The notes under the pieces are model-generated. The model was given only the letters and a program-made list of their open reading frames with translations, made no database searches and was not told the DNA's origin. Source: Patescibacteria group bacterium (GTDB taxonomy: Bacteria > Patescibacteriota > Patescibacteriia > SG8-24). From it: a stretch of 64,000 nt of DNA. This document shows positions 8,784-58,830 of the stretch, one piece after another. How positions within the stretch are numbered: position 1 is the first letter of the stretch; the number at the start of each line of letters is the position of its first letter. The DNA lies in the NCBI GenBank assembly GCA_041667185.1, contig JBAYFM010000004.1, forward strand, positions 9,097-73,096, given 5' to 3'. Both the position numbers and the translations under genes were made by a program.

Positions 8784-9065
8784 TCAGTCGAGATGTCTAT
8801 AACCTAAACGCGAAAAAGTCACGTCCAGTTGTTTTTTCAAAGCAGCCCGACCATTACCGCCTTTCAGATATCGTTCCCGCCGTGCGGCCTCAATTCTAGT
8901 CAAATAAGCCTCGTAATAGATCAACTTCAGCGGCCGCCGGTCTCTGGTCGATCTCACCATGCCCGTACGATGCTGACACCAACGTCTGCGCAGGTCGTCC
9001 GTCAGACCCACATAAAGCTGCCGATCCTTCACGCTAAATAATACGTATACGTAGACGTAATGCAT
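8784..9065 (-). CDS. Small GIY-YIG (URI-domain, YhbQ-like) nuclease
   Basis: YVYVLFSVKDRQLYVGLTDDLRRRWCQHRTG...KLIYYEAY...RERYLKGGNG: GIY-YIG motifs with the conserved Arg and Glu. Confidence 0.8.
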   Translation of the reverse strand: MHYVYVYVLFSVKDRQLYVGLTDDLRRRWCQHRTGMVRSTRDRRPLKLIYYEAYLTRIEAARRERYLKGGNGRAALKKQLDVTFSRLGYRHLD

Positions 9066-9291
9066 ACCGCGTTTCCTACCATAAGGCCAAAATCAGGTAA
9101 AGCGCCAAGCTGAGCTCGGAAAATACAAAAAACCAGCCGGTGTTACCCGGCTGATTCCCACCACTGAACTCGGCTCGAGCGTTGCAGTGGGCCAGCTCAG
9201 CTGGCCGCACCTCGCTCTGATCGCTCGGTTGTTTCATCAGAGAATGCGAAGCTGAGCTTCGCCTTCATCTTTTGAAACCGAGCTGAGCTCG

Positions 9292-9420
9292 GTGGTGGAG
9301 ATGGGGAGATTTGAATCCCTCGCTCCGACTCGGGCCCCGGGGCGCTGCGCACCGGTCCGCCCGCTAGCGGGCGGACCTCTCGCGCCCGAGTTCAAATCTC
9401 CCCCATAAAACAAAAGCGGA
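9292..9420 (-). repeat. Partial duplicate of the tmRNA 3' end (T-loop, acceptor 3' strand and CCACCA, 23 nt identical) fused to a structured element with the 24-nt perfect palindrome GGTCCGCCCGCTAGCGGGCGGACC
   Basis: Reverse strand reads GGGGGAGAUUUGAACUCGGGCGCGAGAGGUCCGCCCGCUAGCGGGCGGACC...GAGGGAUUCAAAUCUCCCCAUCUCCACCA. A 13-bp outer inverted repeat GGGGAGAUUUGAA/UUCAAAUCUCCCC encloses the palindrome. The 3' 23 nt are identical to the genuine tmRNA end at 9445-9467. Confidence 0.6.
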
Positions 9421-9444
9421 CGACTAGCGTCGCCCACTTTTGAT

Positions 9445-9836
9445 TGGTGGAGATGGGGAGATTTGAACTCCCGTCTGGCGAGGTATTTCCCGACACTTCT
9501 ACAAGCGTATTCCGTTTGGTATTTCGGCTCGGCGGTGAGAAACGGAATAAACCCGCCGGACCTATCCCCTGCAATGGTCGGCCTGTCCGCCGGGGCCGCG
9601 GTCAGGCTCTGTCCGATAGATGACACCGGGATCCCGCTTATCGGACGTCAGCGGGGCCGATGGGTTCGCGCGTTACGCGAGAACCGGAGCGAATGAAGGC
9701 GCGAAGGCGTTAGCCAGGGCGGTCTTCACCCGATTGACCAAGTTTGCACTTGTTCAGTATCCGTTGATTTACGAGGTAACGGACGTCCTCGGCTCGCATG
9801 CCGTGAAAAAAACTCCCATCGATGCCTGGCATCCCC
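9445..9836 (-). ncRNA. ssrA: tmRNA (ssrA), standard one-piece
   Basis: On the reverse strand the 5' end GGGGAUGCCAGGCAUCGAUGGGAG pairs with the 3' end ...GACGGGAGUUCAAAUCUCCCCAUCUCCACCA. Acceptor stem is 7 bp with G3:U, the T-arm is GGGAG/UUCAAAU/CUCCC, and CCA is encoded. The putative tag frame is GCA AAC UUG ... GUU CUC GCG UAA, giving ANLVNRVKTALANAFAPSFAPVLA*. The gene is directly downstream of smpB and is followed by a hairpin plus U-tract. Confidence 0.8.
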
Positions 9837-9909
9837 AGGCGGCTGATTGGCTGCTTAGCTGACGGCTCATGGCCAATGGCCAACTGCTATCAGCTATCGG
9901 GCTAACCAG

Positions 9910-10350
9910 CTACTTCATCGCGCGGCGCACCTCCCTATCAAGCTCGCGCCTCTTGATCGTCTCCTTTTTCTCATACTGCTTCTTGCCGCGCGCCAGACCG
10001 AACTCTAATTTGATGCGCGACCCCTTAGTATAAGCAGAAAGAGGCACTAAAGTCAATCCTTTCTGCTCCATTTTTCCCATAAGTCTCAGCAATTCCCGCT
10101 TGTGGAGCAAGAGTTTGCGCGTGCGCCGGGCGTCATACCCCGGCAGCGGTCCGGCTTTGGGGAAAGGCGGGATCTGAGCATTCATGAGCCAGGCCGAGCC
10201 GCGATTCAGGGTCACGAATGATCCGGTCAGGCTCATCTTGTCGTCGCGAACGGACTTGACCTCGTGACCCAGGAGCTCCAAACCAGCCTCGAACTTCTCG
10301 AGGATCTGATAGTCATAATGCGCTTTTTTGTTCTCGGCCAATCTGGGCAT
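9910..10350 (-). CDS. smpB: SsrA-binding protein SmpB
   Basis: HYDYQILEKFEAGLELLGHEVKS...GSFVTL...AWLMNAQIPPF...RTRKLLLHKRELLRL, with a Lys/Arg-rich C-terminal tail. Confidence 0.9.
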   Translation of the reverse strand: MPRLAENKKAHYDYQILEKFEAGLELLGHEVKSVRDDKMSLTGSFVTLNRGSAWLMNAQIPPFPKAGPLPGYDARRTRKLLLHKRELLRLMGKMEQKGLTLVPLSAYTKGSRIKLEFGLARGKKQYEKKETIKRRELDREVRRAMK

Positions 10351-10410
10351 AAAATTCGGCTATCCGCACTGTAACACCGAACACTCCCCCGCTCAATGCC
10401 GCGGCTGGCG

Positions 10411-13262: not shown

Positions 13263-13289
13263 CGCCGCCAACCGTAACACCGAACTGTT

Positions 13290-13678: not shown

Positions 13679-13720
13679 GAGACGGAGTGCTGGAGAGACG
13701 GAGTGCAGGAGTCCGGGGAT
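13676..13720. repeat. Intergenic repeat locus D (GAGACGGAGTGC units)
   Basis: gagagacggagtgctggagagacggagtgcaggagtcc. Confidence 0.55.
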
Positions 13721-15377: not shown

Positions 15378-15544
15378 GTCCAGTTCGGTCCCTCACTAGC
15401 CGCCGAGCTCTCAGCTCGGCGGTTTTTCTTATCCGAGCGCGCGGAACCGGCTCTGCCAGGCCGGGGTCTTGATGAAAAAACGTAAATAGTCTACGATACT
15501 TTTGCTAAAAGCAGCGGTAGCACATCCGACAACTGATCGCGCGT

Positions 15545-15611
15545 GGGTCCGTGGTGTAGCCCGGTTAACACGGGCCGCAGTACTGCGGCCAGACCGAGGG
15601 TTCGAATCCGC
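15545..15611 (+). pseudogene. Pseudo-tRNA copy 1, derived from tRNA-Asp. The anticodon arm is replaced by the 18-nt perfect palindrome GGCCGCAGTACTGCGGCC, and the copy is truncated in the T-arm by the GIY-YIG ORF.
   Basis: GGGTCCGTGGTGTAGCCCGGTTAACACG is identical to the 5' half of tRNA-Asp at 15970. The palindrome then occupies 15573-15590, followed by AGACCGAGGGTTCGAATCC. Preceded by the same 25-nt leader (acatccgacaactgatcgcgcgtgg) as the real tRNA-Asp. Confidence 0.65.
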
Positions 15612-15869
15612 ATGATAACCACCCTTTACGTCATCAAAAATACAAAAGGCAACTACTATATCGGAGTCACTGGAGATATTCACCGGAGACTGATCGAACA
15701 CAATTCGGGAACAAGTCTTGCTACCAGAGGAAGGGGTCCGTGGAAACTGGTGTATACGGAAACTTTCCTTTCGCCGCAAGAGGCGAAAAAACGCGAGTAT
15801 CAGATCAAGCAAAAGAAACGGAAATCATACATTGATTGGTTGATAAATGCGCGTGGGTCCGTGGTGTAG
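15612..15869 (+). CDS. Small GIY-YIG (URI-domain, YhbQ-like) nuclease, second copy
   Basis: MITTLYVIKNTKGNYYIGVTGDIHRRLIEHNSG...WKLVYTETF...EAKKREYQIKQ. The ATG starts 2 nt after the T-loop of pseudo-tRNA copy 1, and the stop TAG lies inside the D-arm of pseudo-tRNA copy 2. Confidence 0.75.
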   Translation: MITTLYVIKNTKGNYYIGVTGDIHRRLIEHNSGTSLATRGRGPWKLVYTETFLSPQEAKKREYQIKQKKRKSYIDWLINARGSVV

Positions 15870-15914
15870 CCCGGTTAACACGGGCCGCAGTACTGCGGCC
15901 AGACCGAGGGTTCG
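15856..15914 (+). pseudogene. Pseudo-tRNA copy 2 (5' acceptor, D-arm, palindromic arm, partial T-arm GAGGGTTCGATGCC)
   Basis: Same as copy 1 up to the T-loop; no acceptor 3' strand. Confidence 0.6.
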
Positions 15915-15969
15915 ATGCCAATCATCCTGATCAAAACAGAGGTCGTACATCCGACAACTGATCGCGCGT

Positions 15970-16047
15970 GGGTCCGTGGTGTAGCCCGGTTAACACGTCT
16001 CCCTGTCACGGAGAAGACCGAGGGTTCGAATCCCTTCGGACCCGCCA
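15970..16047 (+). tRNA. tRNA-Asp (anticodon GUC)
   Basis: Acceptor GGGTCCG/CGGACCC. D-arm GTGT-AGCCCGGTTA-ACAC. Anticodon arm TCTCC-CTGTCAC-GGAGA. Variable region AGACC. T-arm GAGGG-TTCGAAT-CCCTT. Discriminator G and encoded CCA. Confidence 0.85.
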
Positions 16048-16048
16048 T

Positions 16049-16081
16049 AAAAGAACTGTTCATGTCGAACGGTTCTTTTAT
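16049..16081. terminator. Hairpin flanked by A- and T-runs (bidirectional terminator-like)
   Basis: aaaagaactgttcatgtcgaacggttctttt. Confidence 0.5.
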
Positions 16082-16091
16082 TTTGCCGCTC

Positions 16092-16170
16092 CTGCCCATG
16101 GTGTAGCCCGGTTAACACGGGCCGCAGTACTGCGGCCAGACCGAGGATTCGAATCCCTTCGGACCCGCCA
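16092..16170 (+). pseudogene. Pseudo-tRNA copy 3: degenerate 5' acceptor strand (CTGCCCA), D-arm, palindromic GGCCGCAGTACTGCGGCC arm, T-arm, acceptor 3' strand CGGACCC and GCCA
   Basis: Direct reading; the acceptor stem cannot form. Confidence 0.6.
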
Positions 16171-16173
16171 CGT

Positions 16174-16201
16174 AAAAACCGCAGCGCAAGCTGTGGTTTT
16201 T
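16174..16201 (+). terminator. Rho-independent terminator
   Basis: aaaaaccgcagcgcaagctgtggttttt. Confidence 0.6.
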
Positions 16202-16355
16202 ACGTACCACGTGGACTGCCTGAAAGGTAGTCTTTACGTGGTCGACCACGGGGGCTCTTGACATTTTTTTTTTGCTATCCGCTATACTCCACCCCGCTCA
16301 CTCAACTGAGCGCCCTAAGCACTCGTTTGGGGCAACCGAAAACAGGAGACGAGAG

Positions 16356-17183
16356 ATGAAATCGCTCATTCAAAAACAAGTTTTGGCCGTCTGCGAAGTG
16401 CTTGCATTCTGCGCCCTCACTGGTTGCGGGACCGAAGACGAGACCATTGATCCGGACAACCTTCTCGATTCCGTCGACACCGTCGCGCAAGCCCTGGATT
16501 CCGCGCATACGCGCGTAATCCAAGAGTGCTCGCAATCCATGTCCGGCAGCTGGTGGACGTACAACGAGACCAACTGGCCGACGGGGACGACGTACGGGAC
16601 GTATGCGTACATCTCCAACGATCTGGGAGCGTGGGGAAAGTTGTTGGATAACACCTACAACTACGGAATCAGAGGCTGGTGGACGTCGTGCAGAAAGACA
16701 AACTCTCCGCAGACCAACAACTACGGGCCCTGTAGTCTTACGTACGGCGATCTGGACACCGCGAGCCTCTACGATTGCCAAGGCACATGCACGGGCGGCA
16801 TTCACCATCGTGGCGGACAATGCAAGCCATTCATGAACTTGGTGGCGTACCGCTCTGGCACGTACCAAAACCCGGGCTACGCTTGGAAGTCATTCCCGAA
16901 CGACGCCACGATCGCGGCAAGCGACCCCAACGGCACGCTCATGCCTGCGGCGACCTATGCGAATATCGTCGAAGGGGATTACCTCCGGCGACCCTACGGA
17001 CACGCCTTGATCATAGTTCGCAAGATCAGTAGTTCCCAGGTCATCGTGTTGGATTCGAACTGGTCCGGCGGCAACGGGACGGAACAAATCTCATCACATA
17101 GCATGGCCTTCGGCAGCGGCGATAGCGACAGCAATCTGGGTGCCTATCGCGTTCTTAAATGCGCATATACGGGCGGATGTTGA
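16356..17183 (+). CDS. Lipoprotein with C-terminal CHAP / NlpC-P60-like cysteine peptidase-amidase domain (putative cell-wall hydrolase)
   Basis: Internal start MKSLIQKQVLAVCEVLAFCALTGC (lipobox) with AGGAGA RBS. Candidate catalytic Cys in GGQCKPFMNLVAY and His in YGHALIIV, with downstream VIVLDSNW. N-terminal region rich in W, Y and C. Confidence 0.55.
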   Translation: MKSLIQKQVLAVCEVLAFCALTGCGTEDETIDPDNLLDSVDTVAQALDSAHTRVIQECSQSMSGSWWTYNETNWPTGTTYGTYAYISNDLGAWGKLLDNTYNYGIRGWWTSCRKTNSPQTNNYGPCSLTYGDLDTASLYDCQGTCTGGIHHRGGQCKPFMNLVAYRSGTYQNPGYAWKSFPNDATIAASDPNGTLMPAATYANIVEGDYLRRPYGHALIIVRKISSSQVIVLDSNWSGGNGTEQISSHSMAFGSGDSDSNLGAYRVLKCAYTGGC

Positions 17184-18215: not shown

Positions 18216-18270
18216 GCCCGGTTAACACGGGCCGCAGTACTGCGGCCAGACCGAGGGTTCGAATCTCCCG
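18216..18270 (+). pseudogene. Pseudo-tRNA fragment copy 4 (D-loop, palindromic GGCCGCAGTACTGCGGCC arm, T-arm, GCCA; no acceptor stem)
   Basis: gcccggttaacacgggccgcagtactgcggccagaccgagggttcgaatctcccgcca. Confidence 0.55.
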
Positions 18271-18536
18271 CCATGACAGGCGTGGATCCCGCTCACAATA
18301 TCGTAATAACAGAAAGCGGGACCTTCGGACCCACGCACATCATTGACGCGACCCCTGATCTTTGCTTATCTTTAGCAAGCGAAACGGTTCTTTAAAAATT
18401 CATTCATGAGACAGCGCCTCGGGCATAAAGGCCCCCACTCCCGCCGACAGCCGGGTTGTGTCCGGCGCGCTGCCTCATGAAAGAGGAAGCCGCCGGCCGG
18501 AGCGACTCCGGCAGATCCAGAACCCAGGAGATGACG

Positions 18537-25924: not shown

Positions 25925-26030
25925 GTTGCGCGAGAGAGACGGAGTCAGGGAGTTTAAGAGTGCGGGAGTTCAGGAGTGCTGGAGTGCTGAAGGATGCCGG
26001 AACTTCCCCGCTCCTCAACTCCCCCACTTC
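25925..26030. repeat. Intergenic repeat locus F between ftsA and ftsZ
   Basis: gagagacggagtcagggagtttaagagtgcgggagttcaggagtgctggagtgctgaagg... Confidence 0.55.
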
Positions 26031-36600: not shown

Positions 36601-39600
36601 CAGGAACCGCCGCAGCCGGCGTCGTTCGTGCAGGTCTTGCCTGGATCATTGCTGCAGACCGAACGGCACGCTCCGTCAACGGCCGGTTCGTAAACTCCCA
36701 CGTTGTCCCGAACGGAATTGATATCGACAGCTTCGCTGAAAGCGACTTTGACGGCCGTGTTGCGGCACACGTCTCCTTGTCCGGATAATGGGTAGACGAA
36801 CTCCGGCACGGGCGCCGGCGCGCAACAGCCGTTCGCGGAGCAGCCCAGCGGCGGCGGAGCCGGATCCTCTGTAGCCATCTCGCCCAGCGACCGGCAATAG
36901 GTCTGAGGCTCGCTCTGTTCCAGACAGGAGCAGGTCAGGCTGACCGTGGCTTTGCCGACGCGCGTCGAATCGGAACCGAATTCGGTCAAGCCGGCCAGGA
37001 CGTCATCCGACGGCCGAGCCACCGGCGGACCGGAGTAGACGCCGGCGCGGATGATCTGGAAAGGATCGATCCTGCCGTCGCCGCCGACCGGACCCGGATC
37101 GCAACCGGCCGCCTCGCCAGCGCCGACCACGCCATCGCGGCAGAACGACATTTCAGAATATTGCGCGGAAGCGCCTTCAAGCAGACAGGCTGCGGAACAG
37201 CCGTCTTGATTGGCCAGATTCCCGTCGTCGCACTGTTCGCCGGCCTCCACGATCCCGTTGCGGCAGCACCCCGTGCCGGTCGCTGCGGCGCAGGCTTTCG
37301 TGCCGGCGCGCAGACAAGTCTTCGGATCGCAACCGGCGGCCAGAATCGCATCGCTGGCGCCGGCCCCGCTGGCCGTATCACAGCCGATATCTTCGCCGGC
37401 TTCGGTCCGACCGTTGCCGCAATAATTGACGCAGGACGGCATGACTCCCTCGCTATCAGGCGCGACATCCAGACAAGATGGCAGGCTGCCCTCGCGCAAA
37501 CAATTATTGCTGCAGCCGTCGCCGTTCGCGCGATTGCCATCGTCGCAAGCCTCGCCGTCGGCCAGCTGACCGTCGCCACAGGACGACTTGCCGGCCGCAG
37601 CGCCGAGCATGACGCAGCCGACGGTCGAGCCGTTGGGTTCCTGGCAGCCGGTATCGAAGACGGCGCGGACGGCGGAACAACCCGCGTCGCCGAGTTTGCA
37701 GCCCGCCGGTTCGGTCTCGATGATCGCCTCGCAATTTTCGCCGTTTTCCAACTGACCGTTGCCGCAGCACTGCGCATCATCAAGCGCCCCGCATTTGAGC
37801 GTGCCCAAAACTACGCACCGGCTGGCGTCGCACCCGCGCGTCGCCGGACTACCGACGGCCGCATCGCAAGCCGGGTCTTCCCAAGGCAGGTCAACCACGC
37901 CGTTGCCGCACTGCGGCATCTTGTTCTGAGACCCCGTATGCCGGCAATCGGAAGTGCAGCCGGCCATCATCTCCATGTTCGTATCGAGACGGACATCAGG
38001 AGCCGCCGGCGGATCAATGGATCCGGAGTTCGTGTAAAAACCATCGATGACGTTCTTGTCAGTCTTAGTCCAAAGCCAACTGTAAGCACTCGCCCGCAGC
38101 TGCTGGCCAAGATCATCGCATTCGTCAGGTTTGGCAAAAGGCACCGCCTCGAAATCGGCGCGCTGGCCGACGTATTGCAGCAGCACCGCGCTCGGCCTGA
38201 CATCGGCATGATGGACGGCGCAAGGAGTGGGGCTGGTATTGGTCTTGAACTGCCAGGTGAAATAATCGCCGTCGTTAAGCTTCGAAAGCGGCACGCCGCT
38301 CCGACTCTTGATGAAACCGCTGCCGGCCGGCCGCTCGTCTTTTTTCGGATCCCAATATTGGCTCCGCAACCGGACGAGATAATTGGTGTTGCTCGCCAGG
38401 CCGGCCGAACCGATAGCGAATTCGAAGCGCCGGCCGCTCAGCTGACCGACCGAATCCACGACCTTGTTCACGGTCACGGTCTCATGGAAATATGGCGGCT
38501 GGCAGCTGATGTTGCGGCATTTGAGGACTTCGACATTGCCCGAAAAACTGGCTTCATCCATCGCGACGTTGAATTGCGCCCAGATCGCGGCGTTGCTGCA
38601 GGCGCTGCCGCAATCGGGAGCGTGAGCCGTCACCTGCGGATCAGCGAATTTGACGCTCACTTCGGCCTGGCCGGAGGTCTGCTGGCCGCCGCCCGGCGGC
38701 GCGAACGCGGCCGCGAGACCGACCGGATCCTCGGTCTCCGCCTTCGCGCGCACGGCCTGATAACACTGATGCTTGTCGGGCTGCAGGGACAGGATGTTCT
38801 CATCGGAGCTCCAGTTGATCTGGTAGATGCCCGGAGCGCACCGGAGGCGATTGCAGCTGATGTCGACCGGGAGGGCGGCGAAGCCGGCCGGATTCGCCGG
38901 CGCCGGAGCCTGGTTCGGAGCCGCCGGCGGCAGCCATTCCGGATTATCGACCTCGTCGCGATCGATCAGATATTTGAAAGGATTGACGATGACCTCGGAA
39001 AGCACGCAAGGAGCATCGGTTGCGGCGGTCTTGAATTCCAGAACGTAGTCGCCGCCCTGGTTGAGATCGTAATCACCGTCGAGATCAACGCCGTAGATAT
39101 CCTTGATGCCGTTCTCGGAATCGCCGGACAAAGTGACCCGGTACCAGGTCTTCTTGGCCAGCAAAGCCCCGGCACCCTTGGGCGCGGCGACCAGGGACCT
39201 CGACCCCGGCGGCTGGGGCGGCAGGTTGGAATTCTCAAAGGTCACGTCGAACTGGCTGGTCACGTTGACCGCGGCAGCGCAGGCCGGAGCGATGCCATCG
39301 CCGCAGGTCTCGATCCGGTATTTCCCGGCGAAGGAATCGACCCGCATGAAATTATTGAAAGCCAGCTGGATGACCGTGCCAGTGCAGATATCCTGGGAGC
39401 CGGCGGACGGCGCCGGACTCTTGAAATCAACGGCGTATTTGGCCTGGCAGGTCTGTTCATGGCAAGCGCAGCGCAGGACCTGCGGCATCTCCGGCAGCAC
39501 TTCGGTGCTGAACCGCCAACCGTAGGCACTGGTCGGCTTGGGAGCTTCGCAGGCAGCCTTGGTCGCCCGGCAGGAACCGTTGGGGCAGCAGACCGGCTTA

Positions 39601-42323
39601 TCCGGCTGGTCCTTTTGGCACAGATTGTCGCCGCCGATCTTGGTGCAATCCTGGACCTTGAACGGTACGGCGTTCGAACTCCACTGGTTGTTGGCTTCGA
39701 CGTAAACAGGACCAGTCTCCGCCTCCGGGGTCGCGGGATCAGGACGGGCGGCTGGCACGTAAGCCGAGACCTCCCGGTTCGACCAGGAAACGCCGGCATA
39801 AGCCCGGACCGCCGTGTTGGCCAAAAGGTTATTCTTTGAAAAATTGATGGAGTATTCGGTCAGACCGCTCTTGGTGCCGAAACGCTCGCCCAAGATCTTG
39901 ACCTTGGTGGTGCCGGCCGGACCGTTATCCGGCTCGATGCTGCAGATGCCCGGCTTCGACGGATCGGAATTGATGGTGAACAGGATCGCTTTGCTCTCCT
40001 TGCCATCGCCGGAGCGCTGGACCGACAGGTCATACTGCTCCAACCGAACCGGGCAAGTACCCTTGTCCGAGCACTCGAAAGCCGTCGGGACTTTGACCAC
40101 GATGTAGTTGCTGGTCCAGGTCGCTTTGCAGGGCGGAGCGGGCGGAACGCCGATGGCGACATCGCTGGCGTTGGATTTGGATACGAAACGCACCACGCCG
40201 CTCGAACCGAAGCCGCGGCCTACTATAGTAATATAGGCATCAACCGGACCGGCTGGCGGCAACACCTCGGTGATGGCCGGGGCTTCCGCTTTGTCGCCGG
40301 CGGAAACCAGGAAGATCGGATCATTCGTTGTCCACACGCCGGCAGCCTCGTTTCCGATCCTGACTCGGACAGGATACGGCCCGTCCTTGAGGGTCGGCGT
40401 AATGGCGGTGATCTTGTCGCCGGTCGACGCCCAGCCCTGGCTCGCGACGTTGGCCGCGCTGGTGCTGAGGAAAACCTGGCTCTCCCCCATTTCCCCGCCG
40501 AAATTGACGCCGCTGATGTCGAATCGAGTGCCGATCGGGCCGAAATTCGGTTTGACGAAACAAATGCCCGGCTGCGGCGGCAAAGCGGTGTCAACATCGA
40601 AAGTTCCGACCCAGCCGCGATCATTAGCGGTCGTATCCGCGAGTCCGGACAACGTCCTGATCTCGATGGGGCCGTCTTTGGCGTTCGCCGGAACCTTGAC
40701 CGTGGCCTGGTTGGGTTCGACGCCGTTGGTCCACGAATCTTCGGGCGCGGCGCACAGATCGGCGACCGCGTCGTCATTCGGATCATTCACGTCGCCAAGG
40801 AAAATGACGCGTCCGGCCGGCGGTCCGAACATCTTGCCGGAGACCGTCACGAGCGTCCCGGGAGCGCCGGCCGCCGGAGAGACCGACTCGATCATGGGCA
40901 GATCGACGCATTTGCCGGCGACACAGGCGCCGGAAGCGCAATCAGCATCGCCGGTGCAAACCGCACCGCTGCAACGGCCGCAAGCCGAGGCTGCGCCGCA
41001 ATCCACCCCATCCTCATCCGCGTCCTTGGCGCCATTGCAGCAATGCGTCGGCAGGACCTTGAAATTAGAAACGACCGGGGCGCTGGCGTTGCCGACGACG
41101 TCCTCGGCGGACGCGGCTGCGCCGTAAAGTGATCCGGCCGCCAACTTGGCCAGGTCAATCTGCACGGTGTCGATTGAAAAAGGATTCGCGAGCGCGGCGT
41201 TCATCTTCACGGTCTCGCCGATGATGGCGTCCGCCACCGGAGCGCCGGGAGCGCCGTCCTCGCCGACGGCCACGATCCCGAAAGTCAGGCTGACGGCAAG
41301 CTGGTTATCCTGGGCGATAGCCTGAATGTTCAGGGGCGCACTGCAGATTCCTGGCGGCGACTTCGGCATCGTCACGCGGACGTTCGGCGGCTCGAAATCA
41401 ACCCAATCGCCGATCGCGACGGCGCGGCGGCAAAGCGTCCGGGCTTGCGCGGTCGTATCCTCCGGCTTGGCTCCGGGCGCCGCGCGGCAATCGAGCGGCT
41501 TGGCGTCCGGCGTTTTCAGGACATTGGTCTCAAAACCGGTCGCGCCGCCGTCAGCTTCGATGAGATACCAGACATCGCCCTTGAAACATGGCTGCCCGTT
41601 ATCGCACTTCGAGTCCGGAACGAACTCGATGGTCTTGCCGACCACGGTCGAGGTCCCGGCATAAGCTTCGGTCTTGGGCTTGCAAGCGGCGATATCGAAC
41701 GGAAGACTCTCGGCGCCGTCGCCCGCGCCCTGGATCCGCGGATTGCACTCCAAGACGCGGAAATGGCCGGTGACGCTCGCTGCGTCAATGCCATCATTGA
41801 AAGACATTTTGAGTTTGGAATTCTTGGACCAGCCGCGCTGATCATTCGGACCAGCCGGGGCCACGCCCTGAACCCTAAAAGTGGCGCCGCCGCCGAAGCC
41901 GTTGCCGCCGCCAGCGCCGCCCCCGCCGCCATCTCCCCCGCCGCCGACCTCGCCGCCCGCGGCGCCGATGATGAAACGCGCGATGGCGAAAGCCGACATG
42001 ATGATCACGAGGCCGATGGCCGCGCTGACCATGGTCTTCTTCGCTTTGGAGATCTGTTCCTCATTGCCCTGGGAGGTCATCCAAAGGAAGCCGGCGTAGA
42101 GGATCAGGCCGACGGCGATGATCCCGAGAAAACCCAGGAAGTAGCTGATGATGCGGGCAACGGTCGTGCGGACATCGGTCGTCGTGAGACCGATCGCGGT
42201 CGCGTAATCCAACCCCAGATCAACCTGGGCGGAGACGGCGCGCGCCGACAACAAAACGGCGAAACCGGCGATGGCGGCCAATCCGGACCTGAAGATGTTG
42301 TTTTTAGCGGTGCGCATAACCAT
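30684..42323 (-). CDS. Giant (3879 aa) secreted cell-surface protein. N-terminal module is signal peptide plus two TM helices (TrbC/VirB2-pilin-like topology). Passenger is adhesin-like: Gly-rich linker, Myxococcus-type Cys-rich repeats, MopE-like CxxDNNCNG motifs, a TSP3 motif, a C-type-lectin-like WND motif and an aromatic-rich C-terminus.
   Basis: Single uninterrupted ORF. N-terminus ...AVSAQVDLGLDYATAIGLTTTDVRTT...LILYAGFLWMTSQGNEEQISKAKK...IGLVIIMSAFAI. Repeats such as CGDGQLADGEACDDGNRANGDGCSNNC, CRNGIVEAGEQCDDGNLANQDGCSAAC and CGDGVKNTGEQCDDGNSDAADGC. CDGRDNNCNGVVDE and CNGKDDDCNSLIDD. DPDADNDGVPNSKDCEP. QPDNW...NENCAQMYPDGTWNDAAC...GVCN. Confidence 0.8.
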   Translation of the reverse strand: MVMRTAKNNIFRSGLAAIAGFAVLLSARAVSAQVDLGLDYATAIGLTTTDVRTTVARIISYFLGFLGIIAVGLILYAGFLWMTSQGNEEQISKAKKTMVSAAIGLVIIMSAFAIARFIIGAAGGEVGGGGDGGGGGAGGGNGFGGGATFRVQGVAPAGPNDQRGWSKNSKLKMSFNDGIDAASVTGHFRVLECNPRIQGAGDGAESLPFDIAACKPKTEAYAGTSTVVGKTIEFVPDSKCDNGQPCFKGDVWYLIEADGGATGFETNVLKTPDAKPLDCRAAPGAKPEDTTAQARTLCRRAVAIGDWVDFEPPNVRVTMPKSPPGICSAPLNIQAIAQDNQLAVSLTFGIVAVGEDGAPGAPVADAIIGETVKMNAALANPFSIDTVQIDLAKLAAGSLYGAAASAEDVVGNASAPVVSNFKVLPTHCCNGAKDADEDGVDCGAASACGRCSGAVCTGDADCASGACVAGKCVDLPMIESVSPAAGAPGTLVTVSGKMFGPPAGRVIFLGDVNDPNDDAVADLCAAPEDSWTNGVEPNQATVKVPANAKDGPIEIRTLSGLADTTANDRGWVGTFDVDTALPPQPGICFVKPNFGPIGTRFDISGVNFGGEMGESQVFLSTSAANVASQGWASTGDKITAITPTLKDGPYPVRVRIGNEAAGVWTTNDPIFLVSAGDKAEAPAITEVLPPAGPVDAYITIVGRGFGSSGVVRFVSKSNASDVAIGVPPAPPCKATWTSNYIVVKVPTAFECSDKGTCPVRLEQYDLSVQRSGDGKESKAILFTINSDPSKPGICSIEPDNGPAGTTKVKILGERFGTKSGLTEYSINFSKNNLLANTAVRAYAGVSWSNREVSAYVPAARPDPATPEAETGPVYVEANNQWSSNAVPFKVQDCTKIGGDNLCQKDQPDKPVCCPNGSCRATKAACEAPKPTSAYGWRFSTEVLPEMPQVLRCACHEQTCQAKYAVDFKSPAPSAGSQDICTGTVIQLAFNNFMRVDSFAGKYRIETCGDGIAPACAAAVNVTSQFDVTFENSNLPPQPPGSRSLVAAPKGAGALLAKKTWYRVTLSGDSENGIKDIYGVDLDGDYDLNQGGDYVLEFKTAATDAPCVLSEVIVNPFKYLIDRDEVDNPEWLPPAAPNQAPAPANPAGFAALPVDISCNRLRCAPGIYQINWSSDENILSLQPDKHQCYQAVRAKAETEDPVGLAAAFAPPGGGQQTSGQAEVSVKFADPQVTAHAPDCGSACSNAAIWAQFNVAMDEASFSGNVEVLKCRNISCQPPYFHETVTVNKVVDSVGQLSGRRFEFAIGSAGLASNTNYLVRLRSQYWDPKKDERPAGSGFIKSRSGVPLSKLNDGDYFTWQFKTNTSPTPCAVHHADVRPSAVLLQYVGQRADFEAVPFAKPDECDDLGQQLRASAYSWLWTKTDKNVIDGFYTNSGSIDPPAAPDVRLDTNMEMMAGCTSDCRHTGSQNKMPQCGNGVVDLPWEDPACDAAVGSPATRGCDASRCVVLGTLKCGALDDAQCCGNGQLENGENCEAIIETEPAGCKLGDAGCSAVRAVFDTGCQEPNGSTVGCVMLGAAAGKSSCGDGQLADGEACDDGNRANGDGCSNNCLREGSLPSCLDVAPDSEGVMPSCVNYCGNGRTEAGEDIGCDTASGAGASDAILAAGCDPKTCLRAGTKACAAATGTGCCRNGIVEAGEQCDDGNLANQDGCSAACLLEGASAQYSEMSFCRDGVVGAGEAAGCDPGPVGGDGRIDPFQIIRAGVYSGPPVARPSDDVLAGLTEFGSDSTRVGKATVSLTCSCLEQSEPQTYCRSLGEMATEDPAPPPLGCSANGCCAPAPVPEFVYPLSGQGDVCRNTAVKVAFSEAVDINSVRDNVGVYEPAVDGACRSVCSNDPGKTCTNDAGCGGSCIQAKYCADTGERCQINSDCSFGVVCAARPAEAPSVCSNNGLACVANADCGGSCRPVRYCVKKPGQQCSTDADCGEGDTCADRQPVNGQLRPWGETSLRPEVRSSAWWQAPARLISFLFDLLERAVSPVRAADAGYCRVPGDLVVKPRLVTFMSAGSYLPNVTHTILLRGADGLRPAGEVLRTAGGVPLYDSSPSEFKTAGAVCKIDSVVLTPVSHLFTTAEDTNAAVYPDPEDSLDGDQNFVAEAKPARGGDLASLNSTPDYRFKWFWDVQPDDSPIVVAPTVVGPAVGNGFCEIGEADNSPDCKNCAAASDCVRSRPEETETARVSVRKTPVEKFPANGDQSVRVAAEILDQGLPSTLSAESRVTVMLCRNPWPSWRKCTDVQAHGLPWDAARGASLSCLGDEQVWFPFYDPTTNLSFYYCRDGAAGGDEGDDLPALNESGVKVLSRTSSALSSASRRLAQAGAASSAPRTPAVGFLPALNESKYASLQPGRDIQREYLFTFDRALGPLDPNFPDKPTAWEKNAIGLRIMSNLDHLSISDWYQKQGFSGNPTATTVDGYPALREGRTVYSLAVAKVDIAAEQQRRLYTNVNILSYSDGAAAETQAIFDQILNKINFNLNVSNKGYCVDAAQEGMQALDNGKPIPCSADVDCRVKNGGFDPLRAGLYCSAHKDKLIRDLKRWTDLVQLRNALVAKKSDGYPKLESGTFLPGRTISSWGSWTSVLASELGFGLVADPVNKLMQCSGYCSQYPNKAACDQHAEICVYENGVCADKRKFDPATCWNAAEKVYRCPAESHVYEFQSVGGQDFRLYADFETGQDYLCTAYAEQNTCLAQDGFCNWFGGKCAANAKMYWAGSTCFEVRDGSDPDNTTQNECVAKSECAWSPEAGCQPQGGGALLMSGVNYDLGPRCQAMTEIGSQGYCGDGVVQIGGANPEECEPGQAPAIIDCVSGGRPGVQRKACGLDCRWQAPGACAVGSCGDGIKQSGEFCDDGPLNGTYGQCNSTCNGLGPRCGDGAKQASEACDLGADNGQYNFNGAPSCSWDCKELGPRCGDSKINGSGEVCDGGVQNYPQLCCPPGADQTTCTQLSSQPGCSTNADCRGLGANGQDWSCVKFCDANDHDKRWRRTCYANAPGTEDDQLACRWGDWSCTEAGSCGDGVKNTGEQCDDGNSDAADGCVNCKNAVCGDGFVSAARGEQCDGGALNGQRCRPAYGQDCTYCTSACKLGTVTGGFCGNNILENFEHDPPGPEECEGETGINNWICVSTRPQDQVFGRQTGQASCDAKTCKRTCVDRSSKACNDSSTVNTDSDVRPPQGVWNLFNPQAYLLELPNSWPFPNPYPVAPPQSYPIVLKDSCDPDADNDGVPNSKDCEPLQWDSRPNFSLTYTKSGDTGETGSFSVTEGVEDVCDGRDNNCNGVVDENLMKIRGVFRVEGGRGVVGNAPIKLYCKDGGNLTYLKEVMTAADGSYDISFNITTCAGSEIEIQAWPPSTGCWGGPDIAKTTLAKVADCNPANSMDLVFYPKELCNGKDDDCNSLIDDNWTVRTRPGEGMAVSGNLRDAMFVNTPIVGATVEAQAAVCNYDRVTTCGSDTDCNADTTLNFNNWATQQPDNWTGSPDGNENCAQMYPDGTWNDAACSSTQLADRGVCNDLTVTGTGLNYDSAKSACSNHGGLASIADLTKNEQVRTACNGANCWIGLDDKVTEGIFIWANGKKLGGVCGVDRSPNNIAIQTDASGNYNLADVVKTTGTPAHCRVRLKVLPFKPANNLVVSGLSGAVVERNVNGYHAASMFVPSGSANSWSAPQFYLMPRVSYGYAMAAYIWDGDLNGFLDSYLWVPDPGSATVSYGSPGNQDVANTNPNAFLSCYHPDGRNTCGTFDYAPQTMLYRWNDDRSVLRTWKFWVNDYSGNGYDYFSQVNSRMYISWHNGAYQLTSITAPVSTSNTKGNWYIFDMTVPTSGVPTLTPQNVYQTSTP

Positions 42324-47629: not shown

Positions 47630-47706
47630 TGGTGGGCGCAGGTGGGATCGAACCACCGACCTCTGTCGTGTGAGGACAGCGCTCTAACCAGCTGAGCCAT
47701 GCGCCC
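47630..47706 (-). tRNA. tRNA-Val (anticodon CAC)
   Basis: Reverse strand reads GGGCGCATGGCTCAGCTGGTTAGAGCGCTGTCCTCACACGACAGAGGTCGGTGGTTCGATCCCACCTGCGCCCACCA with cloverleaf pairing and encoded CCA. Confidence 0.85.
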
Positions 47707-56480: not shown

Positions 56481-56514
56481 AACTTTTACGCCGCCGATTT
56501 AAAAAATATCCCGC

Positions 56515-56537
56515 CTGGTTCAGGCGGGATATTTCGT
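56515..56537. terminator. Bidirectional terminator between rel and parB
   Basis: aaaaaatatcccgcctggttcaggcgggatattt. Confidence 0.7.
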
Positions 56538-56550
56538 ATGTGATCGATCT

Positions 56551-57432: not shown

Positions 57433-57439
57433 ACTCTGA

Positions 57440-58210
57440 TCAGATCGAAGACTCTAATTCCAGGACCTCCTGGGCGAGACTTTCATAGGCCTTGGCCCCT
57501 TTGGACCAGGGATCGTAATGCGCGATGGGCTGGCCATAGCTCGGCGCCTCGGCCAGGCGGACGTTGCGCGGGATGACGGAACGGAAAATCTTGTTGGGAA
57601 AAAATTTCTGCAATTCGCCCAGGACATCATTAGCCAGTTTGTTGCGCGGATCGAACATCGTGAGGACCGCGCCCATGACCTCGAGATCCGGACGCAGACT
57701 GTTCCGGACGAGATCGATGGTGCCCAAGAGCTGGCTCAGACCTTCCAGAGCGTAATATTCCGCCTGCACCGGGATCAGCACCCGATCAGCGGCGGTGAGT
57801 CCGTTCACCGTCAGCAAACCCAGGGACGGCGGACAATCGATGATGACGTAATCGTAATCGTTACGCACGGCCAAAAGCGCGTCAGCCAGACGGAATTCGC
57901 GGCGCTCGAGGTCGACGAGTTCGACAGCTGCTCCAGCCAGATTCGCCGTTGACGGCGCCATTTTAAGACCCTCGGTTTTGGTTGGCACGACCACATCCTT
58001 GAACACCGCCGTGCCGATCAAGGCCTCGTAGATCCCGCGCTCCAGCGACCGATGTTCGACGCCCAAACCAGAGGTCGCGTTCGATTGCGGGTCCAGATCC
58101 ACGAGAAGGACGAACTTGCCGCGAAGCGCCAAATAAGCCGCCAGATTGACCGCGGTCGTCGTCTTGCCGACACCACCTTTTTGATTGACCACTGATATGA
58201 TGTAGGCCAT
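57440..58210 (-). CDS. parA: Chromosome partitioning ATPase ParA (Soj)
   Basis: Deviant Walker A NQKGGVGKTTTAVNLA. Confidence 0.9.
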   Translation of the reverse strand: MAYIISVVNQKGGVGKTTTAVNLAAYLALRGKFVLLVDLDPQSNATSGLGVEHRSLERGIYEALIGTAVFKDVVVPTKTEGLKMAPSTANLAGAAVELVDLERREFRLADALLAVRNDYDYVIIDCPPSLGLLTVNGLTAADRVLIPVQAEYYALEGLSQLLGTIDLVRNSLRPDLEVMGAVLTMFDPRNKLANDVLGELQKFFPNKIFRSVIPRNVRLAEAPSYGQPIAHYDPWSKGAKAYESLAQEVLELESSI

Positions 58211-58306
58211 AGCGCTATTACTTTACCCGCCAAAAACCATTTTGACAATATGGTCCGATATATTATAATGGCACAGCCTTAAGCTTGTCGTTTTAGCTTA
58301 AAATAG

Positions 58307-58390
58307 GCCGCGGTGGCGGAATGGCAGACGCACGCGACTCAAAATCGCGCGGGGCAACTCATGAGGGTTCGACTCCCTCCCGCGGCACCA
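58307..58390 (+). tRNA. tRNA-Leu (anticodon CAA), long variable arm
   Basis: GCCGCGGTGGCGGAATGGCAGACGCACGCGACTCAAAATCGCGCGGGGCAACTCATGAGGGTTCGACTCCCTCCCGCGGCACCA. Acceptor GCCGCGG/CCGCGGC; anticodon loop CUCAAAA; T-arm GAGGG-TTCGACT-CCCTC; encoded CCA. Confidence 0.85.
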
Positions 58391-58391
58391 T

Positions 58392-58425
58392 CTAAAAATC
58401 GTCTGGGCTTTTACCCAGGCGATTT
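58392..58425 (+). terminator. Terminator hairpin after tRNA-Leu
   Basis: ctaaaaatcgtctgggcttttacccaggcgatttttag. Confidence 0.55.
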
Positions 58426-58559
58426 TTAGCATCCGTGTCTACGAGCGGGAGGGAGTCGAAGGGTACGGCGAGGCTTGCCTAGTATGGCAAGCCGAGACGA
58501 CCCGGGCGGCGAAGGAGGCGGCGCACATGAGGACTTTTCCAGCGCCGCCGGGTGAGCCG

Positions 58560-58766
58560 GACTCCCTCCCGCGGCACCATCCCCCGTCGCTCGAGACAAG
58601 CTCGAGCTATGGGGGATCGTTTTATAAGAGCACCGAACCAACCCCCTCGAAGCTCGCCGGAAGCGAGCGGAGTGGGGTCCCGCGGCACCATCCCCCGTCG
58701 CTCGAGACAAGCTCGAGCTATGAGGGATCGTTTTATCCGAGTACCAAGCCAGCCCCTCGAAGCTCC
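58560..58766 (+). repeat. Two tandem ~95-nt direct repeats, each starting with a copy of the tRNA-Leu 3' end (T-stem 3' strand, CCGCGGCACCA) followed by a near-palindromic hairpin ATCCCCC-GTCG-CTCGAG-ACAAG-CTCGAG-CTAT-GGGGGAT. An inverted fragment (gcgggagggagtc) lies at 58444-58457.
   Basis: Unit 1 58560-58657 and unit 2 58677-58766 align with few mismatches. Both begin with the last ~20 nt of the tRNA-Leu gene. Confidence 0.6.
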
Positions 58767-58830
58767 ATGCAGCGGAAACGAATCAAGACCGTCTCTCGTG
58801 AACAAAAAAAGAGCCCCTCAGACGAAAGGC

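Follow-up and report, generated by a model that had tools for sequence, protein, structure and literature searches.

Three RNA genes in a 64,000-nt stretch of DNA from an ultra-small patescibacterium (the window, meaning the whole stretch analyzed) are followed by fragments of their own 3' ends, and the question raised by the locus is whether these fragments, the long palindromes accompanying them and two small nuclease genes form one system. An earlier note on this DNA had taken them as such, proposing a family of selfish or mobile elements, or a tRNA-end-directed DNA-processing system, in which GIY-YIG nucleases recognize palindromes with restriction-site-like centers. The underlying observation was confirmed. 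The genes for tmRNA (9445-9836, minus strand; ARAGORN; Rfam RF00023, 126.4 bits; tag ANLVNRVKTALANAFAPSFAPVLA), tRNA-Asp (GTC; intact, 15970-16047, plus strand) and tRNA-Leu (CAA; 58307-58390, plus strand), the tRNAs being located by RNA gene searches, all have their 3' ends copied exactly downstream; a search of the window found no 3'-end fragment copy for tRNA-Val (47630-47706, minus strand; same searches). Both ORFs described as YhbQ-like, GIY-1 and GIY-2, pass the Pfam PF01541 cut-off of 22.6 bits (52.9 and 56.8 bits, respectively). The window has five perfect palindromes of at least 18 nt, whereas 0.4 would be expected in shuffled sequence: a 24-nt one, GGTCCGCCCGCTAGCGGGCGGACC (9354-9377), lies within the tmRNA-linked unit, and an 18-nt one, GGCCGCAGTACTGCGGCC, occurs in four copies (starts 15573, 15883, 16120, and 18230) in copies of tRNA-Asp. 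The CTCGAG feature, also listed as a long palindrome, is instead a 7-bp hairpin of two CTCGAG in a terminator-like stem (58589-58607; again 58700-58718). The layout recurs in two independent assemblies, L001 (JGI) and L002 (ENA), and is therefore not an assembly artifact.

These parts do not make up one common downstream structure, as the three palindromes named earlier belong to three different contexts. Two separate phenomena are overlaid at the RNA gene ends, namely, ORF-less units resembling the tRNA-linked repeats (TLRs) of Escherichia coli and mini GIY-YIG cassettes. The tie of the GIY-YIG/palindrome add-ons to tRNA genes is group-wide and seemingly undescribed; in the literature searched, we found nothing linking the UPF0213/YhbQ-type family to tRNA gene ends or GCTNAGC palindromes.

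ORF-less units that copy RNA gene 3' ends

The ORF-less (type A) units start with an inverted T-arm copy and end in a 13- to 33-nt copy of the RNA gene 3' end that mostly begins in the T-loop, and they are present or absent between close relatives. Directly 3' of the tmRNA, a terminator-like hairpin (T1; 9411-9442, minus strand; terminator scan) is followed by a unit at 9293-9404 (minus strand) with an inverted T-arm copy of about 16 nt (9388-9404) and a perfect repeat of the terminal 23 nt of the tmRNA (9293-9315). It aligns with the Rfam RtT model over its full length with the same outer helix, at 25.9 bits, below the gathering score of 45; the remaining units gave no match to RtT. Folded as RNA (z = -3.8), it is closed by an outer helix of 13 bp, with the tail left unpaired. 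At this site, the unit is absent from the relative L090, and that of L089 has an unrelated interior. The tRNA-Leu gene is likewise followed by a terminator-like T1 (58391-58429, plus strand) and then by a unit extending to 58579 (plus strand), which comprises an inverted 16-nt T-arm/acceptor copy (58445-58460), the hairpin GGCTTGCCTAGTATGGCAAGCC (58472-58493), and an exact copy of the last 20 nt (58560-58579). It folds even more stably (z = -5.8), and its interior resembles that of a tRNA-Asp-linked unit of L090 (75.5% over 49 nt; E = 1e-3). Next comes a 111-nt tandem unit in 1.8 copies (58567-58765, plus strand; TRF, period 111, 91% matches; z = -4.5), each copy having a terminator-like hairpin that contains two CTCGAG (58580-58625 and 58691-58736); the first copy ends in the last 13 nt of tRNA-Leu (58678-58690), so that the unit ends like type A units but lacks the inverted T-arm copy. 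The TLR-like unit after tRNA-Asp (16049-16205) is derived from the tRNA itself: a terminator-like T1 (16049-16079, plus strand) precedes the third pseudo-copy, of tRNA positions 8-78 (16099-16170, plus strand), with a hairpin at 16120-16137, followed by the hairpin T2 (16170-16205, plus strand). Positions 46-78 are repeated at 16138-16170 with 32/33 identical.

E. coli TLRs, to which the RtT RNA encoded in the tyrT operon belongs (Rfam RF00391; Egan and Landy 1978 and Rudd 1999, as cited in PMC8144298), are defined by a 3' end of 18-19 bp that matches the preceding tRNA or rRNA exactly (PMC8144298). Like them, the units lie directly 3' of the gene after a terminator or U-run and carry the exact 3' copy at their end; the 5' strand pairs with the copy across its T-loop, the 3' strand of its T-stem and its acceptor portion, so that a ...CCA tail stays unpaired, and tandem repetition can occur, as with the unit after tRNA-Leu. 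The likeness is one of architecture, with the single sub-threshold RtT score noted above, and the units differ in occurring in Patescibacteria, also after a tmRNA gene, and in that the Asp version copies nearly the whole tRNA, its anticodon arm swapped for a hairpin. The duplicates had been taken as part of the GIY-YIG system; they are found, however, downstream of 9 of the 85 tRNAs near a GIY gene and of 3 of the 26 that are not (2 once a false positive is removed), and this similar frequency marks them as a separate phenomenon.

Tyrosine integrases that target tRNA genes classically leave a direct repeat extending from the T-loop to the 3' end; their islands and prophages cross over in the T-loop of tRNA and tmRNA genes. 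The 3' copies could accordingly be attL/attR scars of such elements, since mostly deleted, with the GIY-YIG genes as leftover cargo. The direct repeats do begin in the T-loop and reach the gene's end, some of them continuing into the flank (33 nt in L008); the replacement 3' end keeps the gene intact, tandem build-up occurs, and in L013 a 3' copy of this kind delimits an islet of 1.25 kb that holds an extra ORF. We nevertheless consider this origin improbable, because no integrase domain was found in ORFs adjoining the loci or in the called genes of the relatives' 20-kb loci, and the elements measure 0.1-0.45 kb, the units only about 105-190 nt, yet keep a recurring order of terminator, inverted T-arm, hairpins, and copy in unrelated genomes. 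Further, the duplication in the GIY-2 subfamily concerns the 5' side of the tRNA, and GIY-1 cassettes join the CCA end via a palindrome rather than an att-like core.

GIY-1 and palindromes at tRNA ends

GIY-1 (8784-9065, minus strand) encodes a 93-aa GIY-YIG protein with the same domain and size as UPF0213/YhbQ-type (prokaryotic Slx1-like) proteins (PMC1564403), its closest solved structures being 1ZG2 and 1YWL. Its 229 homologs all come from CPR-type sources and have invariant catalytic residues. The leader (9105-9293, minus strand; z = -5.5) is 70-83% identical to those of L011, L012, L017, L048, L067, and L075 and holds three GCTNAGC-centered 17-nt palindromes, hp1 (9277-9293), hp2 (9246-9262) and hp3 (9190-9206), as well as a terminator-like hairpin T2 (9128-9159; terminator scan) and an imperfect hp4 (9105-9120). 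These three palindromes, between the tmRNA 3' copy and GIY-1, had been missed earlier. As hp1 overlaps the last base of the displaced 3' copy and does not adjoin the live tmRNA, the GIY-1 cassette was there first and the TLR unit arrived later. In L089 and L090, the tmRNA locus lacks GIY-1.

A census of 80 GIY-1-family loci bore out the suspected link of small GIY-YIG genes to tRNA ends and palindromes. In 62/80, a tRNA or tmRNA gene lies within 450 nt, 61 of these sharing the strand of the GIY gene; the genes concerned span more than 15 tRNA identities, and relatives 80-88% identical sit at different tRNAs. GCTNAGC-centered palindromes occur within 300 nt upstream of the gene in 75/80 loci, at a density of 8.3 per kb, compared with 0.58 per kb elsewhere. 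Each cassette has two to four perfect palindromes with the core [A/C]GCTNAGC[T/G], and the 191 sites comprise 117 distinct 17-mers, with all four Watson-Crick pair types at stem positions 4-8 (2-13% mismatches). The tRNA supplies the first palindrome arm with its own 3' (CCA) end, the arm covarying with the tRNA, and the terminal 4 nt of the tRNA are repeated directly after hairpin 2 in 23/26 short cassettes. A comparison of tRNA ends near to and away from GIY genes likewise showed an association: palindromes of at least 16 nt lie within 200 nt downstream of 59/85 tRNAs near a GIY gene versus 2/26 not near one (background, 30/1142 random windows). Individual loci show a nested insertion (L010), a GIY gene between 80-nt direct repeats ending in a tRNA 3' copy (L070) and a leader copy without the ORF (L011). 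Searches of GIY-1-type cassettes found no defined right boundary and, in most, no far-side 3' tRNA copy.

The palindromes had been thought of as restriction-modification or methylation sites (GCTAGC, AGTACT, CTCGAG) read as double-stranded DNA. GCTNAGC is indeed a symmetric interrupted site of the type recognized by dimeric enzymes, such a GIY-YIG restriction enzyme exists (R.Hpy188I, TCNGA; PMC2630997), and the stems are perfectly Watson-Crick. This reading is nonetheless very improbable. Any perfect even palindrome automatically has a palindromic hexamer at its center, and the centers are not conserved, as seen in the five Asp loop variants of relatives (GTAC, CTGC, GGAT, TTCC, and GTCT). 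The hexamers occur at unremarkable frequencies, 6-21 times each in the window, with no special placement. Moreover, the arms outside the GCTNAGC core covary rather than being fixed, the sites cluster solely upstream of the GIY gene, and no methyltransferase adjoins the loci.

GIY-2 and the tRNA-Asp copies

The four Asp palindromes occur exactly in place of the anticodon arm in copies of tRNA-Asp, two of which, upstream of the true tRNA, flank GIY-2 (15612-15869, plus strand; 85 aa, 40% identical to GIY-1). Pseudo-copy 1 (15522-15610, plus strand) consists of a 23-nt upstream box, tRNA positions 1-28, the 18-nt hairpin (15573-15590) and positions 46-64, ending in the T-loop; the GIY-2 ATG follows its T-stem GAGGG at a distance of 11 nt. 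The 3' end of GIY-2 runs into pseudo-copy 2 (15855-15915, plus strand; positions 1-28, hairpin 15883-15900, positions 46-60), which, after a spacer, is followed by the upstream box once more (15947-15969, plus strand). Pseudo-copy 2 is shared with L003/L089 and absent from L090 and L004-L008. The dispersed pseudo-copy 4 (18216-18332, plus strand) has positions 15-63 with the hairpin at 18230-18247, a 56-nt insertion in the T-loop, and then positions 64-74.

GIY-2 orthologs (57-99% identity) are always nested between a 5' tRNA-Asp copy, with a conserved hairpin in place of its anticodon arm, and the intact tRNA-Asp, a layout found in at least nine independent genomes with differing neighboring genes, and the 5' copy matches the resident tRNA-Asp in every locus. 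The closing pairs of the hairpin stem covary from GG/CC to CC/GG. The GIY-2 cassettes probably use the tRNA promoter, with the T-stem GAGGG as the ribosome-binding site. Against the earlier interpretation, GIY-2 keeps its position in relatives, and its repeat is there with it. The gene is syntenic and is 79-81% conserved between relatives versus 60-74% for ribosomal proteins L20 and L35, IF3, and SmpB, a pattern equally compatible with a useful resident gene and with transfer.

Two possible readings: insertion cassettes or trailer RNAs

With about equal chances of being right or wrong, we propose that two kinds of small elements have built up at the ends of tRNA-type genes, both carrying the displaced gene segment and so preserving the host RNA gene. 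A type A unit, 110-135 nt long, comes after the terminator, its opening strand complementary to the T-loop, the 3' strand of the T-stem, and the start of the acceptor 3' strand; its interior has GC-rich hairpins, among them the GCTAGC palindrome and a CCTAGTATGG-loop hairpin not named earlier, and its end is the exact copy of the RNA's 3' end. GIY-1-type cassettes attach to the CC(A) end of the tRNA or tmRNA, with the first palindrome arm provided by the tRNA 3' end, and GIY-2-type cassettes lie between the duplicated 5' two-thirds of tRNA-Asp, hairpin-substituted and ending in the T-loop, and the intact gene. For the GIY-YIG add-ons, the best reading, in which our confidence is middling, is thus one of insertion cassettes that are specialized for the ends of tRNA genes and bring along the piece of tRNA that they displace. 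By the mechanism that we infer, they may spread rarely through nuclease-initiated copying; both homology arms would be tRNA sequence, so that insertion would never inactivate the tRNA, and the palindromes would be hairpin-forming cis sites for the cassette's own nuclease rather than restriction sites. This reading draws on the anatomy of the elements, the family-wide association, stem covariation, junctions clustered in the T-loop, nested insertions, and presence or absence in relatives, all of which are observed.

A selfish family is a reasonable idea, but there is no sign that it moves at present: identical GIY proteins keep a single fixed context across 19-24 contigs each, so no recent movement is visible, which counts against the insertion cassettes. 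[quoted passage not shown] As no far-side 3' copy was detected in most GIY-1-type cassettes and no defined right boundary was found, the homology-arm model is directly illustrated only in a minority of loci (L010, L013, L070, and L085), and because the tRNA target is intact after insertion, the model leaves immunity to self-cleavage unexplained. In addition, the strong RNA structure of units and leaders in tRNA 3' trailers between terminators fits an RNA-level role. The units and hairpin leaders might be functional, host-beneficial 3'-trailer RNAs and the GIY-YIG proteins resident tRNA- or RNA-related enzymes co-transcribed with the tRNA, for example, cutting the hairpins to free the tRNA 3' end and their own mRNA. 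We regard this alternative as possible but on the unlikely side. It accommodates the stable folds (z = -3.8 to -5.8) between terminator-like hairpins, an X - X' - X arrangement permitting alternative pairings that involve the tRNA CCA end, the fixed loci of identical proteins, the conservation of syntenic GIY-2 above housekeeping proteins, and the strand bias of the central N of the palindromes (C 77 versus G 40). It also has precedents, in that prokaryotic Slx1-like GIY-YIG domains can be found fused to a TrmH-like tRNA methyltransferase (PMC1564403), and Hfq and CsrA are bound by those E. coli TLRs that follow rRNA operons (PMC8144298); for E. coli rrA/rrB/rrF, a role as processing signals or small RNAs has been proposed. 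Against it, the stems are almost purely Watson-Crick, and their 18 mismatches across 191 sites show no G-U excess (5 GU-type versus 7 AC-type); such stems are uncommon among RNA helices. Close relatives differ in whether they have the units and GIY-1, and unit interiors are unrelated. Only some tRNAs per genome carry elements, close relatives have them at different tRNAs, and nested insertions exist. To our knowledge, every characterized GIY-YIG enzyme is a DNase.

As insertion cassettes, the elements invite comparison with several known systems. REP/RAYT and IS200/IS605-type elements pair an HUH nuclease gene with cognate hairpin-forming palindromes; as in these, a short segment adjoining the hairpin is complementary to the target (here X' to the tRNA end), but the nuclease is GIY-YIG, and the palindromes lie only next to the gene rather than being dispersed. 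Phage T4 SegB is also a GIY-YIG nuclease encoded amid tRNA genes and read as a selfish element favoring its own locus, but SegB-type enzymes carry an additional DNA-binding region, and their target is a defined site in a competing genome (PMC2330249), whereas the proteins described here consist of the catalytic domain and are encoded on a bacterial chromosome with no recent mobility; each of their genes adjoins one tRNA end, accompanied by matching palindromes or by a duplicate of part of the tRNA. The self-splicing group I introns of patescibacterial tRNA-Asp/Asn genes agree in phylum and in kind of host gene; they occupy anticodon-loop position 35/36, mostly without an endonuclease gene, and the paper describing them (PMC13011429) contains no occurrence of GIY-YIG. 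At one locus, L032, an intron-bearing tRNA-Met and a GIY cassette occur together.

Terminal copies and palindromes at the RNA genes

ARAGORN and Rfam together identified four RNA genes in the window, namely, tmRNA (9445-9836, minus strand), tRNA-Asp(GTC) (15970-16047, plus strand), tRNA-Val(CAC) (47630-47706, minus strand), and tRNA-Leu(CAA) (58307-58390, plus strand). BLAST searches of each gene against the window bore out the duplicated 3' fragments that the earlier note had reported after tmRNA, tRNA-Asp, and tRNA-Leu. The final 23 nt of tmRNA recur exactly at 9293-9315 (23/23), and its T-arm has an inverted 16-nt copy at 9388-9403. tRNA-Leu is followed by copies of its final 20 nt (58560-58579; 20/20) and final 13 nt (58678-58690; 13/13), together with an inverted 16-nt copy (58445-58460), and positions 46-78 of tRNA-Asp recur at 16138-16170 (32/33 nt). 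The same search recovered no fragment copy of tRNA-Val anywhere in the window. The long perfect palindromes are likewise real: five of at least 18 nt were observed against 0.4 expected, comprising one 24-mer (9354-9377) and four instances of the 18-mer GGCCGCAGTACTGCGGCC. The layout of the window is reproduced in two independent assemblies.

The centers of these palindromes had been taken for sites resembling those of type II restriction enzymes, a reading that is poorly supported. A palindromic hexamer in the middle of a perfect even palindrome is an automatic property of such palindromes, and apart from this the window shows nothing unusual about CTCGAG, GCTAGC, or AGTACT. As a candidate restriction-modification target, no recognition sequence is fixed across instances. 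At the tRNA-Asp locus, the hairpin loop reads GTAC, CTGC, GGAT, TTCC, or GTCT among relatives, and AGTACT is therefore not the conserved feature. The sole fixed palindrome center is GCTNAGC, which is always embedded in covarying arms.

Repeats downstream of tmRNA and tRNA genes

The units without ORFs lie directly downstream of tmRNA, tRNA-Asp, and tRNA-Leu on the same strand. The tRNA-linked repeats (TLRs) reported from Escherichia coli since 1978, of which 22 are known there, likewise lie directly downstream of tRNA or rRNA genes; they are characterized by 18-19 terminal bp that exactly repeat the 3' end of the upstream gene, and a function is known for none except three rRNA-linked members (PMC8144298). 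The terminal copies in our units show this same 3' identity to the upstream RNA gene. Furthermore, the units and the RtT RNA consensus follow a common plan, in which a U-run is succeeded by a 5' complementary strand, internal GC hairpins, and the tRNA 3' end; in both, the 5' strand is complementary to the T-loop, the 3' strand of the T-stem, and the start of the acceptor. An outer helix with a free 3' tail is predicted when the tmRNA and Leu units are folded at minimum free energy (fold z-scores, -3.8, -5.8, and -4.5), and the tmRNA unit could be aligned to the RtT consensus structure. In a permissive Rfam search, 9295-9416 (minus strand) matched RtT RNA (RF00391) over its full length at 25.9 bits, the gathering score being 45. 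Homology of all units to RtT was considered and rejected: only the tmRNA unit matches, below threshold, and the Leu unit and those in five loci from other genomes (L008, L032, L070, L089, and L090) returned no RF00391 match. Since these other CPR units lack the match, membership among the TLRs is architectural, with homology not demonstrated.

Comparison with two close relatives revealed that tmRNA is followed by a terminator alone in L090 and by a unit sharing the plan but not the interior sequence in L089, and that the interior of the tRNA-Asp unit of L090 is related to that of the tRNA-Leu unit of the window. Save for this last pair, the interiors are lineage specific, and a single sequence family was rejected. 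The recurrence of the architecture in a very distant phylum, with tmRNA included, its presence or absence among close relatives, and the interchangeable tRNA-matching ends show the TLR architecture to be both general and dynamic at the ends of tRNA genes. The claim that the 3' copies are tied to GIY-YIG genes did not survive a survey of 111 tRNA and tmRNA genes, in which such copies follow 9 of the 85 genes that have a GIY gene nearby and 3 of the 26 that do not; an apparent copy in L076 is a false match to the T-arm of a neighboring tRNA, leaving 2/26. This equal frequency indicates that the repeats are independent of the nuclease genes.

A terminator scan placed one hairpin after tmRNA and the next terminator-like hairpin only past the leader of the adjacent GIY-YIG gene; the corresponding hairpins flanking the Asp and Leu units were recognized by eye and by folding, the scan having called only part of them. 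The TLRs of rRNA operons are described as lying between two terminators. The apparent position of the present units between terminators and their strong folds favor the main rival to the interpretation developed below, namely, that the units, leaders, and GIY-YIG proteins would have an RNA-level, host-beneficial role. The conservation of the GIY-YIG protein at tRNA-Asp also speaks for it, as do prokaryotic Slx1-like GIY-YIG domains reported as fused to a TrmH-like methyltransferase (PMC1564403).

Mini GIY-YIG genes at tRNA ends

Both GIY-YIG ORFs that had been noticed in the window encode true GIY-YIG domains (PF01541; Pfam threshold, 22.6): GIY-1, a 93-aa protein encoded beyond tmRNA (8784-9065, minus strand), scores 52.9 bits, and GIY-2, an 85-aa protein encoded at tRNA-Asp, scores 56.8 bits. 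They are 40% identical to each other, and the catalytic residues Y7, Y18, G20, R28, H32, and E64 are invariant over 23 sequences. Among PDB entries, the UPF0213 proteins 1ZG2 and 1YWL match best. Homologs are annotated as patescibacterial, with phage records contributing three weak relatives and no others. To our knowledge, the YhbQ/UPF0213 mini GIY-YIG nucleases have no established role. Homing endonucleases of the I-TevI and Seg types combine the catalytic domain with a C-terminal DNA-binding domain, whereas the proteins described here have 85-93 aa, with the Pfam domain at residues 4-72, and lack this two-domain layout. Directly past the GIY-1 stop codon is a hairpin, ATTCCCGC-N4-GCGGGAAT (8731-8752), of a type also seen in two unrelated CPR loci (L007:9 and L029:805).

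We sampled 80 loci encoding GIY-1 relatives (52-71% identity) from many CPR lineages. A tRNA or tmRNA lies within 450 nt in 62 of them, on the same strand in all but one and usually 48-260 nt upstream; 7 of the other 18 are contig-edge cases. One to four perfect odd palindromes centered on GCTNAGC occur within 300 nt upstream of the GIY gene in 75/80 loci, and this center accounts for 172 of the 188 odd palindromes in that interval. Their density is 8.3 per kb upstream of the gene versus 0.58 per kb elsewhere, with 184 of 217 falling within 200 nt of it (161 of them upstream). The core is [A/C]GCTNAGC[T/G], the central N being C in 77 cases versus G in 40; all four Watson-Crick pairs are represented at arm positions 4-8, where mismatches amount to 2-13%, and 191 sites yield 117 distinct 17-mers. 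No RNA wobble signature was seen in the palindromes: G-U pairs are not in excess among the mismatches, which points to DNA-level palindromes. The first palindrome takes the discriminator-CC(A) end of the tRNA itself as its 5' arm, and this arm varies in step with the tRNA end; the terminal 4 nt of the tRNA reappears right behind the second palindrome in 23 of 26 short cassettes. The window has three perfect GCTNAGC palindromes and one imperfect copy, all in the GIY-1 leader (9105-9293, minus strand) and none elsewhere in the 64 kb. Whereas the first palindrome of the window adjoins the displaced 3' copy of tmRNA, that of L016, L033, L073, and L086 adjoins the live tmRNA end, which argues that insertion of the TLR unit postdates that of the GIY-1 cassette. 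In the literature searched, we found no account of an association of GIY-YIG, tRNA ends, and GCTNAGC or of GIY-YIG genes at CPR tRNA ends.

The commonest core, GCTCAGC, is identical to a motif, AGCTCAGCTGG, in the D-arms of many tRNA genes (e.g., tRNA-Val of the window at 47691 and tRNA-Thr of L011); this may be a coincidence or a clue to the ancestral target of the nuclease. In L073 (2231-2450), a 38-nt unit made up of the tmRNA 3' 18 nt and hairpin 1 is present in at least four tandem copies downstream of tmRNA and upstream of the GIY gene, in an array that is partly N masked. In L032 (2168-2374), a near-threshold group I intron match (RF00028; 45.8 bits versus 50) lies inside the tRNA-Met preceding a GIY-1-type cassette, which explains why ARAGORN missed that tRNA and means that an intron and a GIY cassette cooccur at one tRNA.

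The tRNA-Asp locus departs from its first description in that the 18-nt palindrome substitutes exactly for the 17-nt anticodon arm within copies of tRNA-Asp. All elements are on the plus strand. Copy 1 (15522-15610) consists of a promoter-proximal box, positions 1-28, the hairpin, and positions 46-64 ending in the T-loop. GIY-2 (15612-15869) follows, placed between this and a second 5' copy (15855-15915), after which come a spacer, a second promoter-proximal box, and the intact tRNA-Asp. A third copy (16099-16170; positions 8-78 with the hairpin) lies after a terminator and before another hairpin, and a fourth, 2 kb away, has its T-loop interrupted by a 56-nt insertion. GIY-2 orthologs (57-99% identity) from at least nine other genomes all display the same order of hairpin-substituted 5' copy, ORF, and intact tRNA-Asp amid differing neighbor genes, and the 5' copy matches the resident tRNA-Asp in every case, variable acceptor positions included. 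Conservation extends to the hairpin stem, in which the closing pairs covary (GGCC...GGCC versus CCCC...GGGG). These copies were rejected as unusually stable RNAs (fold z = -0.3 and -1.1).

The T-stem GAGGG sits 5-11 nt upstream of the GIY-2 ATG, suggesting that it may be used as a Shine-Dalgarno sequence. As a sigma-70 promoter scan of the GIY-1 and GIY-2 loci found nothing, capture of the tRNA promoter by GIY-2 is an idea drawn from reading the sequence. Between the window and two relatives, GIY-2 is 79-81% identical, compared with 60-74% for SmpB, IF3, L35, and L20. GIY-2 is syntenic, and all relatives examined have it at tRNA-Asp. Solo hairpin-substituted tRNA-Asp-like copies, extending through the T-arm without the acceptor 3' strand, occur in L092 (2229-2340) and L099, where neither a GIY ORF nor an intact tRNA-Asp lies within 620 nt. 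Beyond the tRNA-Asp locus of the window are repeats with ACGTGG(C/T) (16205-16255), and the relative L003 has three such units of ~70 nt (3420-3650).

Movement and nature of the cassettes

Several arrangements support movement of the cassettes. In L010, an inserted second GIY cassette separates tRNA-Gly from a 13-nt copy of the tRNA-Gly end; in L070, 80-nt repeats ending in a tRNA-His 3' copy flank the GIY gene; L013 has a 1.25-kb islet with a 3' copy as its boundary; and L011 has a leader without an ORF between two tRNAs. Moreover, GIY-1 relatives with 80-88% identity occupy different tRNAs, and neither L089 nor L090 has GIY-1 at its tmRNA locus. Against movement stand the synteny of GIY-2 and the structure of most cassettes, which have neither a tRNA copy on the far side nor a defined right end; an inverted T-arm copy was rejected as the right boundary, being present in just 3-4 of 52 loci. 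Recent mobility was rejected because proteins P0046 and P0068, recovered as identical sequences from 19-24 contigs each, occur in one context apiece, with no second context. That the 3' copies are scars of integrase-mediated tRNA-gene islands would fit the direct repeat of a tRNA 3' segment that bounds the insert, but neither the neighboring ORFs nor the called genes of the relatives' loci include a tyrosine or serine recombinase, and this explanation is poorly supported. REP/RAYT systems comprise many dispersed palindrome copies and an HUH (Y1) transposase; here, in contrast, the palindromes cluster beside the gene and the protein is of the GIY-YIG type.

The best-supported interpretation is that two kinds of elements share tRNA gene ends, TLR-type repeats and mini GIY-YIG cassettes. 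Junctions are found repeatedly in the T-loop or at the CCA end, and the GIY-YIG cassettes would spare the tRNA because the segment that they displace is carried along or duplicated. We infer that the nuclease might initiate rare copying, with tRNA sequence serving as both homology arms and the palindromes as its hairpin substrates. These cassettes may represent a novel means by which a selfish gene can reside in an essential gene without damaging it, and they bear on the annotation of tRNA loci in Patescibacteria genomes. The almost one-to-one tie of one large YhbQ/UPF0213 branch to tRNA 3' ends and to the fixed GCTNAGC palindrome offers a concrete candidate substrate for these nucleases.

A bolder proposal, which we regard as rather improbable, is that the GIY-1-type cassettes constitute an unrecognized class of mobile elements specific to tRNA 3' ends. 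A stand-alone GIY-YIG nuclease would then act on DNA hairpins tipped by GCTNAGC, and the NCCA end of the tRNA would be selected by pairing with a complementary cassette segment, much like the guide pairing of IS200/IS605 elements, whose nuclease is unrelated. The hairpin modules without ORFs and the TLRs would be nonautonomous or derived products, which, if true, would provide an origin for the long-unexplained TLRs of E. coli.

Three further features were observed. Octamer-periodic repeats of GGAGNNNN (three to six copies) occupy five sites in the window (554-577, plus strand; 2799-2846, minus strand; 8658-8697, plus strand; 13684-13715, plus strand; and 25965-25988, plus strand), with 0.015 expected per shuffle; several are apparently located between ORFs, one of them directly between GIY-1 and a sigma-factor gene. 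An uninterrupted ORF of 3879 aa spans 30684-42323 (minus strand). In L090, a very long hairpin separates nrdR and ftsZ (about 16790-16900) and is matched by many plant microRNA-precursor models at subthreshold scores.
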